4,370 nucleotides of DNA from the IMG/VR virus record IMGVR_UViG_2734482585_000011. The stretch is one strand, 5' to 3'. The notes under the pieces were generated by a model, which saw nothing but the letters and a program-made list of their open reading frames with translations, did not search any database and was not told where the DNA came from. Both the position numbers and the translations under genes were made by a program. The stretch is from a virus (lineage: Duplodnaviria > Heunggongvirae > Uroviricota > Caudoviricetes). Numbering within the stretch: position 1 is the first letter of the stretch; each line of letters begins with the position of its first letter. Below are positions 1 through 4,370 of the stretch, piece after piece.

Positions 1-1056
1 GATTCCCGACCCGGTACGCTGAATGATTTTCTCGGTGCCATGACGGAGGATGATGCCCGTCCGGAGGCACTGCGCCGTTTTGAGCTGATGGTGGAAGAGG
101 TGGCGCGTAACGCGTCCGCGGTGGCACAGAACACGGCAGCCGCGAAGAAATCAGCCAGCGATGCCAGCACATCAGCCCGTGAGGCGGCAACCCATGCGAC
201 TGATGCTGCAGATTCAGCACGTGCAGCCAGCACGTCAGCCGGACAGGCCGCTTCGTCGGCTCAGTCAGCGTCTTCCAGCGCAGGAACGGCATCAACAAAG
301 GCCACTGAAGCCTCAAAAAGTGCTGCCGCTGCAGAGTCCTCAAAAAGCGCGGCGGCTACCAGTGCCGGTGCGGCGAAAACGTTAGAAACGAATGCGGCAG
401 CGTCACAACAATCAGCAGCCACTTCTGCATCCACCGCGACCACGAAAGCGTCAGAAGCTGCCACCTCAGCCCGGGATGCGTCGGCTTCAAAAGAGGCGGC
501 AAAATCATCAGAAACGAACGCATCATCAAGCGCCAGTAGCGCAGCTTCCTCGGCGACGGCGGCTGCAAATTCTGCGAAGGCGGCCAAAACGTCCGAGACG
601 AACGCCAGGTCTTCTGAAACGGCAGCGGGACAGAGTGCCTCAGCTGCGGCAGGCTCAAAAACAGCGGCTGCGTCGTCTGCCAGCGCCGCGTCAACAAGTG
701 CCGGGCAGGCCTCAGCCAGTGCCACCGCCGCCGGAAAATCGGCAGAAAGCGCCGCATCATCCGCTTCAACAGCCACAACGAAGGCTGGCGAAGCCACTGA
801 GCAGGCCACGGCAGCAGCGAGGTCAGCTTCCGCAGCGAAGACATCCGAAACGAACGCGAAAGCGTCGGAAACCCGTGCAGAATCCTCAAAAACGGCTGCC
901 GCATCGTCCGCCAGTTCGGCGGCGTCATCGGCATCATCGGCGTCTGCTTCAAAAGATGAGGCGACCAGACAGGCGTCAGCAGCGAAGGGCAGCGCCACGA
1001 CGGCATCCACGAAGGCGACAGAGGCTGCTGGTAGTGCGACGGCAGCAGCTCAGAGC
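1..1056 (+). CDS. stf: Side tail fibre protein Stf, Ala/Ser-rich shaft segment (5' partial at window edge, 3' end abuts N gap)
   Basis: Frame 1 is open from nt 1 (DSRPGTLNDFLGAMTEDDARPEALRRFELMVEEVARNAS...) with no stop before the gap. The translation matches my recollection of the lambda Stf region ...PGTLNDFL.AMTEDDARPE.LRR.ELMVEEVARNAS..., followed by a long Ala/Ser/Thr-rich low-complexity shaft. The first Met at 40 is internal, so the true start lies upstream of the window. Confidence 0.86.
223..1056 (+). repeat. In-frame periodic repeats (42-nt / 14-codon register) within the stf shaft-coding region
   Basis: Recurring peptide units sit at integer multiples of 42 nt. AAK(T/S)(L/S)ETNA starts at 370, 496, 580 and 832 (spacings 126, 84, 252). 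AASTSAGQA starts at 223 and 685 (spacing 462 = 11x42). STATTKA(S/G)EA starts at 430 and 766 (spacing 336 = 8x42). Hand-counted GC over 241-300 is about 62%. Confidence 0.6.
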
Positions 1057-1408
1057 NNNNNNNNNNNNNNNNNNNNNNNNNNNNNNNNNNNNNNNNNNNN
1101 NNNNNNNNNNNNNNNNNNNNNNNNNNNNNNNNNNNNNNNNNNNNNNNNNNNNNNNNNNNNNNNNNNNNNNNNNNNNNNNNNNNNNNNNNNNNNNNNNNNN
1201 NNNNNNNNNNNNNNNNNNNNNNNNNNNNNNNNNNNNNNNNNNNNNNNNNNNNNNNNNNNNNNNNNNNNNNNNNNNNNNNNNNNNNNNNNNNNNNNNNNNN
1301 NNNNNNNNNNNNNNNNNNNNNNNNNNNNNNNNNNNNNNNNNNNNNNNNNNNNNNNNNNNNNNNNNNNNNNNNNNNNNNNNNNNNNNNNNNNNNNNNNNNN
1401 NNNNNNNN
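1057..1408. other. Run of 352 N (assembly gap or masked sequence) inside stf
   Basis: Directly visible. It follows the repetitive shaft-coding region. The stf frame is 1 before the gap and 3 after it. Confidence 0.99.
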
Positions 1409-2957
1409 AATCCAGCTAAGCAGCGCGACCAACAGCACGTCTGAAACGCTGGCGGCAACGCCAAAGGCAGTAAAAGCAGCCAATGACAATGCTGAGAAAC
1501 GTCTGCAGAAAGATCAGAACGGTGCGGATATCCCTGGCAAAGACACCTTTACGAAAAATATTGGTGCCTGCCGTGCCTTCGGTGGGTCAGTAAGCACAAC
1601 AACAGGAAACTGGACGACTGCACAGTTTATCGAGTGGCTGGATTCTCAGGGAGCATTTAACCATCCATACTGGATGTGCAAGGGTTCCTGGTCTTATGGC
1701 AATAATAAAATCATTACTGATACTGGCTGCGGTAATATTCATCTCGCCGGAGCTGTCATTGAAGTAATGGGGATAAAGTCAGCGATGACGATCCGCATTA
1801 CCACTCCGACCACATCCAGCGGTGGCGGAACAACCAACGCCCAGTTTACCTATATTAATCACGGAACAGATTATTCACCTGGCTGGCGAAGGGACTATAA
1901 CTCCAGAAATAAGCCAACGGCATCAGAGATCGGGGCGCTACCGTCAGGTGGAACAGCAGTATCATCAGTTAATCTGGCTTCAAAAGGTCGGGTAGCCGCG
2001 CTGACAGACAATACGCAGGGGGCAGCAGGTCTTGAGTTATACGAGGTGTATAACAACGGATATCCAACAGCGTATGGAAATATCATTCACCTGAAAGGGA
2101 TGACAGCCGTTGGCGAAGGTGAGTTACTCATCGGCTGGAGTGGTACAAGCGGTGCTCATGCTCCGGCATTTATTCGTTCACGACGGGATACGACCGACGC
2201 AAACTGGTCGCCGTGGGCGCAGCTTTACACCTCGGCTCATCCTCCTGCAGAGTTTTATCCAGTCGGTGCACCAATCCCGTGGCCATCAGATACCGTTCCG
2301 TCTGGTTATGCCCTGATGCAGGGGCAGACTTTTGACAAATCTGCTTACCCGAAACTTGCAGCCGCTTATCCGTCAGGCGTGATCCCTGATATGCGTGGCT
2401 GGACGATTAAGGGCAAGCCCGCCAGTGGTCGTGCCGTATTGTCTCAGGAACAGGATGGCATTAAATCGCACACCCACAGCGCCAGCGCATCCAGTACGGA
2501 TTTGGGGACGAAAACCACATCGTCGTTTGATTACGGCACTAAATCCACGAATAACACCGGGGCGCATACGCACAGTCTGAGCGGCTCTACAAGTTCAGCT
2601 GGGGCCCACCAACATAGTCAGACTGGGCCCAGAACGAATAGCGGGAGTCAACCTACTGGAATGTTTCCGGCAGGGAGTACTCAAGTTAGCGGGACTAATC
2701 AGGTTGGTATCAGTGGCTCATTAACCAGTGGCACCTCCCAATGGGTAGGTAAATCATCTTCAGAAGGAAACCATACACACTCACTGTCCGGCACAGCAGC
2801 ATCTGCGGGTGCACACGCGCATACTGTCGGTATTGGTGCTCATACGCACTCTGTTGCGATTGGTTCACATGGACACACCATCACCGTTAACGCTGCTGGT
2901 AACGCGGAAAACACCGTCAAAAACATCGCATTTAACTATATTGTGAGGCTCGCATAA
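1409..2957 (+). CDS. stf: Side tail fibre protein Stf, C-terminal distal/receptor-binding part (5' end abuts N gap)
   Basis: Frame 3 is open from the gap edge (first full codon 1410) to TAA at 2955-2957. The translation begins [22 protein letters not shown]..., the conserved tail-fibre junction motif as I recall it from lambda Stf. The C-terminus carries seven HxH motifs between 2469 and 2876 (SHTHS, AHTHS, AHQHS, NHTHS, AHAHT, AHTHS, SHGHT). The track ORF 1674..2957 is only the part of this frame after an internal Met. Confidence 0.88.
2944..2948 (+). promoter_or_regulatory. Shine-Dalgarno (TGAGG) for tfa
   Basis: GAGG at 2945-2948, 8 nt upstream of the tfa ATG at 2957; it lies inside the 3' end of stf. 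Confidence 0.4.
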
Positions 2958-3538
2958 TGGCATTCAGAATGAGTGAACAAGCACGGACCATAAAAATTTA
3001 TAACCTGCTGGCCGGAACTAATGAATTTATTGGTGAAGGTGACGCATATATTCCGCCTCATACAGGTCTGCCTGCAAACAGTACCGATATTGCACCGCCA
3101 GATATTCCGGCTGGTTTCGTGGCTGTTTTCAACAGTGATGAGTCATCGTGGCATCTCGTTGAAGATCATCGGGGTAAAACGGTTTATGACGTGGCTTCCG
3201 GCGACGCGTTATTTATTTCTGAACTCGGCTCATTACCGGAAAATGTCACCTGGTTATCCCCGGAAGGGGAGTTTCAGAAGTGGAACGGCACAGCCTGGGT
3301 GAAGGATACGGAAGCAGAAAAACTGTTCCGGATCCGGGAGGCGGAAGAAACAAAAAACAGCCTGATGCAGGTAGCCAGTGAGCATATAGCGCCGCTTCAG
3401 GATGCTGTGGATCTGGAGATCGCAACGGAGAAAGAAACCTTGTTGCTGGAAGCTTGGAAAAAGTATCGGGTGTTGCTGAACCGTGTTGATACATCAACTG
3501 CACCGGATATTGAATGGCCAGTAGCACCTATAGGGTAA
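2957..3538 (+). CDS. tfa: Tail fibre assembly protein (chaperone) Tfa
   Basis: 193-codon ORF, ATG 2957 to TAA 3536-3538. The translation [79 protein letters not shown]... is near-identical, from memory, to lambda Tfa. The ATG overlaps the stf stop by 1 nt (TAATG), the usual stf-tfa arrangement. Confidence 0.93.
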
Positions 3539-3624
3539 ATTCGTAATGATTACCTAAATACGTTATTCTTTTGTTAAAAAAGTGATTTTGCTATAGGTAG
3601 GGAGTATGTTCTTGGATTAAGAAT

Positions 3625-3655
3625 AAAAAATCGCCATGAAAGAGCTTCATGGCGA
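3625..3655 (-). terminator. Intrinsic (rho-independent) terminator for leftward transcription
   Basis: Perfect 10-bp inverted repeat tcgccatgaa (3631-3640) / ttcatggcga (3646-3655) with a 5-nt loop (agagc). It is flanked on the left by A6 (3625-3630), which is a U6 tract immediately 3' of the hairpin on the minus strand. There is no U tract on the plus-strand side. Confidence 0.5.
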
Positions 3656-4287
3656 GTACATAAACGTACAAAATGTGATGAAAGTAGAGTGGCGTAAGCC
3701 ACTATATTAAGATATGACAATAGCGAAGAAAAGTAAATAACATTTTATGGACGTTTAATTGTTAATTATAAAAACTAGAGTGCCCGATATTGTTTATCTT
3801 GCTTTAAAATAATGTACTCAAACCAAATTTTTGAGCTAAAAGCTCAAATAATATAAATGCAATAATAATGTTTAATAAGACAATTAGCTTGCTTTGTATT
3901 TTCATTTCGGAATACTGTTAAGTAACTTTGATGACCCTAACAATAGATCGGAATTTTCTTAGAGTCAATGGTCACTGTTTTTGCTTGCAAAGCAAATGTT
4001 TTGGTGGTTATAAGTCGTCTTAATATAGTCACGCATGCAACTTGTTCCATGCGGAGATTAAAGATTGGAATATAACGCGAAGATGGAATTAAATTACATT
4101 TGCAATAATTAATTTATTATTACTCAATAATTACCGATATTATTATTGTAAATTAATCATTAGAATGCAAAAAGAAATGTAACGGCAAAATAAGAGGACG
4201 ATAGCTGAGAAAAAAGCGTGCTTTCCCAATCTGGGGCAAATCACGTCTGAATGACACCTGAAAACAGGTGGTAGCCTCAAGAAGGCT

Positions 4288-4310
4288 GGTGATGCTGCCA
4301 ACTTACTGAT
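4288..4310 (+). repeat. IS1 left terminal inverted repeat (IRL, about 23 bp)
   Basis: GGTGATGCTGCCAACTTACTGAT is the canonical IS1 terminal repeat. Flanking host sequence ends at 4287 (...aagaaggct). Confidence 0.85.
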
Positions 4311-4342
4311 TTAGTGTATGATGGTGTTTTTGAGGTGCTCCA

Positions 4343-4370
4343 GTGGCTTCTGTTTCTATCAGCTGTCCCT
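4343..4370 (+). CDS. insA: IS1 InsA (transposition regulator), N-terminus, 3' partial
   Basis: GTG GCT TCT GTT TCT ATC AGC TGT CCC translates to (M)ASVSISCP, the InsA N-terminus as I recall it. The GTG start at 4343 is assumed from that recollection. Confidence 0.6.

Follow-up and report, generated by a model that had tools for sequence, protein, structure and literature searches.

A run of 352 N in the side tail fibre gene of a Shigella sonnei-type prophage scaffold is most probably a size-estimated gap in an intact gene

The DNA analysed here, a stretch of 4370 nt referred to as the window, carries most of a lambda-type side tail fibre gene (stf), the gene for its assembly chaperone (tfa), an AT-rich spacer and the left end of an IS1 element (Table 1). 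A single stretch of non-ACGT letters is present, and it falls inside stf. In the segment before this N-run, frame 1 contains no stop codon and the other two frames contain 4 and 12. On its 3' side, the sole open frame starts at 1410 and extends for 515 codons to a stop at 2955-2957. These counts confirm the sequence-only reading on one point, namely that a gap of 352 N splits stf, with frame 1 in use until 1056 and frame 3 from 1410. If every N is counted as a base, the N-run and base 1409 add up to 353 nt, which is not a multiple of three, so the frame changes.

Table 1. Features of the 4370-nt window
Feature	Position	Strand	Remarks
stf 5' segment	1..1056	+	codons 80-431 of 1027; first contig; end of PF08400, then Ala/Ser/Thr-rich heptad region
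scaffolding gap, 352 N	1057..1408	.	estimated length; most probably stands for 242 nt, stf nt 1294-1535
stf 3' segment	1409..2957	+	base 1409 = third base of codon 512; codons 513-1027 and stop
tfa, tail fibre assembly chaperone, 193 aa	2957..3538	+	ATG overlaps the stf stop codon; PF02413, E = 4.6e-44
IS1 left end, 83 nt	4288..4370	+	IS1 terminus begins at 4288; scaffold ends within this multi-copy element

The origin of the window was found by a look-up of the 515-residue product predicted when gene calling restarts just after the gap, which returned 11 contigs. One of them, the 4370-nt record CWZX01000223.1 of assembly GCA_001258155.1, is byte-identical to the window. Therefore, the window represents the complete scaffold as deposited, N included. 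The N-run separates independently assembled contigs, and the gene calls of the record stop at 1056 and restart at 1409. The scaffold starts at stf nt 238, and both of its ends lie in multi-copy sequence (the conserved N-terminal region of stf and IS1), as expected for short-read contigs.

The same IS1 insertion 3' of tfa is found at finished S. sonnei-type loci (L041-L047), where the IS1 InsA/InsB genes follow, and in E. coli MLI023K1/K2 (H1-H3), where an IS1A transposase is present at the IS1 site. Most E. coli relatives are without the insertion and their match ends at 4287. The spacer between tfa and IS1 (3540-4287) is AT-rich, with about 30% GC versus 46-62% in the genes, and contains ORFs of only 48-52 codons. 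Conservation of the spacer extends to 4287 in several E. coli prophages, where no annotation is given for it.

Two further features overlap the coding sequences. The catalogued candidate small RNA IS009 (Rfam RF02111) was matched over its full length at 3300-3498 (+), with 218 bits for a gathering score of 117, and lies wholly inside the tfa coding sequence. On the opposite strand of stf, an ORF of 249 codons (261-1010, -) runs across the Ala/Ser/Thr heptad region. The stored annotations of the record and its siblings include it as a gene of 245 aa, and the lambda reference has orf206b annotated at the homologous antisense position. Its presence may be due simply to the rarity of stop codons in this GC-rich repeat region.

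The sequence behind the gap was sought in relatives of the window. An exact look-up of the Tfa protein, which has entries in 3535 blocks of the assembly collection (one source name reads 'tail fiber assembly protein [Shigella sonnei]'), gave ten loci, including the finished chromosomes CP023645.1, CP019689.1 and LR213458.1; CP019689 is Shigella sonnei 75/02 (PMC5447701). Six of the ten, S. sonnei 75/02 among them, are identical to the window on all 4018 determined bases (1056/1056 and 2962/2962). Three others show 1-4 differing bases, all in the downstream block, and the remaining one (L049) is identical across the 2875 nt that it holds. In the identical locus L040, window 1-1056 corresponds to 3155-4210 (stf nt 238-1293) and the second contig, window 1409-4370, to 4453-7414.

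All ten loci contain the same 242 nt between the two flanks (L040 4211-4452). In the finished chromosomes, this sequence lies at 423972-424213 of CP019689.1 (minus strand) and at 1277161-1277402 of CP023645.1. Together with base 1409, these form 81 codons (432-512) that are open in the stf frame, giving a single stf of 1027 codons with no stop in each of the ten. The gap thus starts at codon 432 and runs to the second base of codon 512. Its sequence starts by encoding KSTAESAATRAETAAKRAEDIASAVALEDAS, the end of the heptad region, which takes only about the first 90 nt; the remainder is the first of two 44-residue Phage_fiber_2 repeats, and the second repeat begins where the determined sequence of the window continues. 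The sequence-only reading had proposed looking for one ORF that joins the segments, and had considered that stf may be intact and over 1000 codons long if the gap length is only an estimate. Both were borne out: each window-matching genome has such an ORF, 1027 codons long.

The same distance was obtained with larger sets. In the best 60 complete E. coli genomes (98.8-100% identity on flanks of 300 + 300 nt), the span is 842 nt (841 in one) versus 952 in the window, which leaves 242 nt for the gap. The 30-nt left flank has 37 identical occurrences (35 IMG/VR loci and L004), with a spacing of 242 in 13 of them, 110 in four and a different downstream module in the others; in none of the 37 is the spacing near 352. 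Scans of the species-representative genome collection gave no match for either the gap-spanning pattern or the 30-nt left flank. Annotated relatives contain an uninterrupted stf of 980, 1028 or 1025 codons, and the number of Phage_fiber_2 repeats varies among relatives: one (110 nt), two (242 nt) or three (L007).

The length of the N-run was compared with those of related scaffolds. At this site in stf, nine sibling scaffolds, which belong to the accession series of the window, also contain an N-run, of 156-284 N. The ten runs, of 156, 250, 250, 250, 258, 262, 280, 283, 284 and 352 N, stand for true distances of 241-273 nt, and the error ranges from -96 to +110 with a mean of +11 and an SD of 50. 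The value for the window, +110, is the largest of the series, at about 2 SD. Further N-runs in the sibling scaffolds are also wrong (+46 and +68). In each of the ten scaffolds, the downstream contig begins at stf nt 1536, and the end of the upstream contig falls within nt 1262-1294. Two of the ten preserve the apparent frame, which is about chance level. With lengths this arbitrary, the N counts are scaffolder estimates, and therefore a comparison of frames across the N-run is uninformative. The frame change arises artificially when placeholder N are treated as bases, and the stf frameshift is no real feature. In every respect the N-run resembles the size-estimated gaps of short-read scaffolds, of which it is a textbook case.

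The best explanation, with a probability of about 0.93, is a scaffold gap of estimated size and a true length of 242 nt in an intact 1027-codon stf, the break probably arising from a shared module. The window would be a complete small scaffold from the short-read draft assembly of a Shigella sonnei-type genome. Read pairs would have joined two contigs (1-1056 and 1409-4370), and the distance estimated by the scaffolder would have been written as 352 N, 110 more than the 242 nt that actually intervene. At the true length, the two segments would form one uninterrupted lambda-type side tail fibre gene of 1027 codons, with tfa next to it. Because the isolate's own gap bases are absent, the intactness of its stf is deduced from the relatives and not read directly.

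By its domains and gene order, stf has the features of the lambda type. The profile of the prophage tail fibre N-terminal domain (PF08400) matches window 1-1056 at profile positions 80-134 (E = 4.5e-23), and the full-length protein of L040 at 1-134 (E = 1.4e-71). The downstream piece, where the second contig starts, gives matches to PF03406, PF07484 and PF03335 (Phage_fiber_2, Collar and Phage_fiber), so that the C-terminal half holds Phage_fiber_2 (repeat 2 in the 3' segment), the Collar domain and a T4 gp37-like His-rich tip. Among known structures, Stf residues 1-94 match PDB 9e7m, deposited as 'Tail fiber protein', residues 794-1027 match the T4 gp37 tip (PDB 2xgf, E = 9.7e-82), and the tail fibre S of Mu (PDB 8ju3) matches at E = 1.1e-85. 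In addition, tfa is directly 3' of stf, with J and lom upstream in L040-L049 and L001-L003. The order J - lom - stf - tfa and the domain set are shared with the Stf system of Ur-lambda and of the lambdoid prophages in E. coli and Shigella, where the fibre is named 'prophage tail fiber N-terminal domain-containing protein'.

The lambda stf is 88% identical in DNA to the window-type stf across the first 909 nt. The Ur-lambda Stf has a length of roughly 774 codons. Compared with the lambda protein, the window-type Stf is longer (1027 codons), with a longer heptad region and two Phage_fiber_2 repeats, whereas the central receptor-binding part is different and related to the tail fibre S of Mu. These are ordinary mosaic differences. 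Judged from its sequence and that of its relatives, stf would be an ordinary, intact, mosaic lambdoid side tail fibre gene.

A known lesion of this gene had been invoked as an analogy for the frame change. In the lambda reference, orf-401 (19650-20855) ends with ATPKAVKVVMDETNRKAHWTVRH followed by its stop, just after the Phage_fiber_2 repeat, and stf continues in another frame towards orf-314. Since this repeat is homologous to that behind the gap, the lesion of lambda PaPa maps inside the gap-equivalent. Laboratory lambda carries a frameshift that blocks the synthesis and assembly of the side fibre (2025 Ur-lambda paper, PMC12617516), and the HK630 record has its own stf annotated as disrupted, missing a C relative to Ur-lambda. 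The analogy holds for the gene family and for the position of the lesion in the gap-homologous region, but not for the shift itself. The two frames of lambda PaPa both come from determined bases, whereas in the window the frame change spans N alone and identical genomes have a continuous ORF.

It is very unlikely that a real frameshift or another disruptive lesion of stf, comparable to that of lambda PaPa, lies in the unsequenced stretch and leaves the side fibre as a pseudogene in two ORFs. The literal count of 352 N plus base 1409 would agree with it, yet the N count is demonstrably not base-for-base. The position of the orf-401/orf-314 lesion inside the gap-equivalent would also agree, as would the decay of S. 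sonnei prophages, in which lom is truncated and IS1 adjoins tfa; against this, the same open 242 nt are found in 10 of 10 window-matching loci and the window itself shows no sign of a lesion. The frameshift that the sequence-only reading envisaged inside the gap if the N stood one-for-one for bases was not upheld, since 352 N exceed the real 242 nt by 110 and the gap lengths of the nine siblings are arbitrary. It is similarly improbable that isolate GCA_001258155.1 differs from all sequenced relatives within the 242 nt, either by a stf frameshift or by an insertion of ~110 nt near the site of the PaPa lesion. If a lesion were present in the isolate, it would represent an independent loss of the side fibre in a Shigella prophage.

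A real in-frame length variant has an equally small chance. For example, a third Phage_fiber_2 repeat of 132 nt would place 374 nt behind the gap and leave stf intact with 1071 codons. The repeat number does vary among relatives from one to three, and the resulting difference (352 versus 374, -22) would be closer than +110 to the mean sibling error of +11. However, +110 is within about 2 SD of the scatter of the estimates, every sequence with identical flanks has 242 nt, and the three-repeat form of L007 has many differences from the window in its flanks. It is hardly credible that a data provider deliberately masked real sequence with N, base for base: one sequence collection is described as having masked stretches that read as N, but the window is the deposited NCBI record, with gene calls broken at the N-run, whose length is 110 off the real sequence and differs from those of the sibling N-runs at the same site.

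With a size-estimated gap in an intact stf as the preferred explanation, the cause of the assembly break was also studied. The sequence-only reading had placed the gap where periodic repeats of 42 nt run and had proposed an assembly collapse on them. Autocorrelation of the Ala/Ser/Thr region of stf, with z-scores computed against codon shuffles, showed a fundamental period of 21 nt (seven residues), with z = 5.9 at lag 21 and 3.9 at lag 42, the latter a harmonic. A periodic region does reach the gap, although 42 nt is not its basic period and the heptads cover only the beginning of the missing sequence. Tandem Repeats Finder reported no 42-nt array, the periodicity being seen in the autocorrelation only. 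Within the 12.5-kb locus, no exact repeat of more than 12 nt touches the gap region or any part of the heptad region. Since the longest exact repeat is 12 nt, the heptad repeats are too degenerate for a collapse, and internal repeats were rejected as the cause of the gap.

A module shared with the stf copy of another prophage is probably the cause, and likelier than internal repeats, as far as sequence comparison can indicate. The contigs probably broke because stf nt ~1264-1536 would recur as a nearly identical module in a second prophage tail-fibre gene of the same genome. Of 5426 E. coli genomes, 3558 contain the 242-nt module, which occupies up to 8 sites in a single genome. In a common variant, the L007 group, stf has a difference from the window type at nt 1263 and diverges again from 1537 onwards, the only differences in between being at 1416, 1455 and 1482. 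The differences at 1263 and 1537 bracket the gap, with left edges at 1262-1294 and a right edge at 1536.

Two scaffolds are chimeric: contigs from two or three paralogous stf copies with 93-97% identity overlap in gene coordinates and have been joined through N-runs. In the sibling scaffold L062, a piece of 775 nt (1498-2272) is 93% identical to stf nt 507-1281, and its 53 differences all fall within nt 549-953; therefore, it comes from a second stf copy. In L029, an IMG/VR locus read as the reverse complement, the pieces 1-4909, 4911-5976 and 5978-8547 overlap in stf coordinates, and one of them ends exactly at stf nt 1536, the first base of the ten downstream contigs.

The second copy was also sought directly. 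A search with the three-repeat Stf protein of L007 for such a copy in S. sonnei gave E. coli proteins of 67-95% identity, and the exact protein was absent among the 8000 candidates listed. The look-up of exact-sequence clusters found neither the L007 Stf nor the 1027-aa Stf, although a 1027-residue product is listed elsewhere. For the paralogous piece of L062, no match above 98.6% was found in complete E. coli genomes and none above 94% among the retrieved loci. Within the 12.5-kb loci that were read, a second stf copy was not demonstrated for the window's assembly or for the finished S. sonnei chromosomes. In most other draft assemblies, the gap region lies inside contigs of 20-50 kb, so a break need not occur here and is a matter of the pipeline or of read length.

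As a caution, reading frames should not be compared across the N-runs of draft scaffolds, since the number of N is an estimate of distance, here with an SD of about 50 nt. Tail-fibre modules common to paralogous prophages are probably recurrent breakpoints of short-read assemblies, and such breaks yield truncated 'genes' that pollute protein databases, such as the 515-aa product on 11 contigs. Thousands of assemblies from E. coli and Shigella already contain the window-type stf itself.

Some minor observations concern the lengths of the N-runs. Exactly 250 N are found in four sibling N-runs (two in L060 and one each in L065 and L068), and this repeated value suggests a default or rounded number in the scaffolding pipeline. 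In addition, 352 equals 242 + 110, and 110 nt is the gap-equivalent in stf alleles with a single Phage_fiber_2 repeat (L001 4057-4166, L005, L012 and L035). The match is probably due to chance; a real rearrangement was set aside, as an extra repeat in tandem adds 132 nt and not 110.

Upstream of stf, lom encodes 160 aa in several window-matching loci (L042, L044, L045 and L048; 2337-2819) and 135-144 aa in L041 and L043, whereas none is called in L040, L046 and L047 and the gene encodes 199 aa in E. coli and phage relatives. The shortened or absent lom suggests prophage decay beside an intact stf. In E. coli strain a7, the heptad region has 66 nt (22 codons) fewer (L004 5992-6003 versus window 694-747); therefore, the length of this region varies in frame between relatives. 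In the same strain, the N-terminus of stf has been replaced after an IS3 insertion that truncates J.
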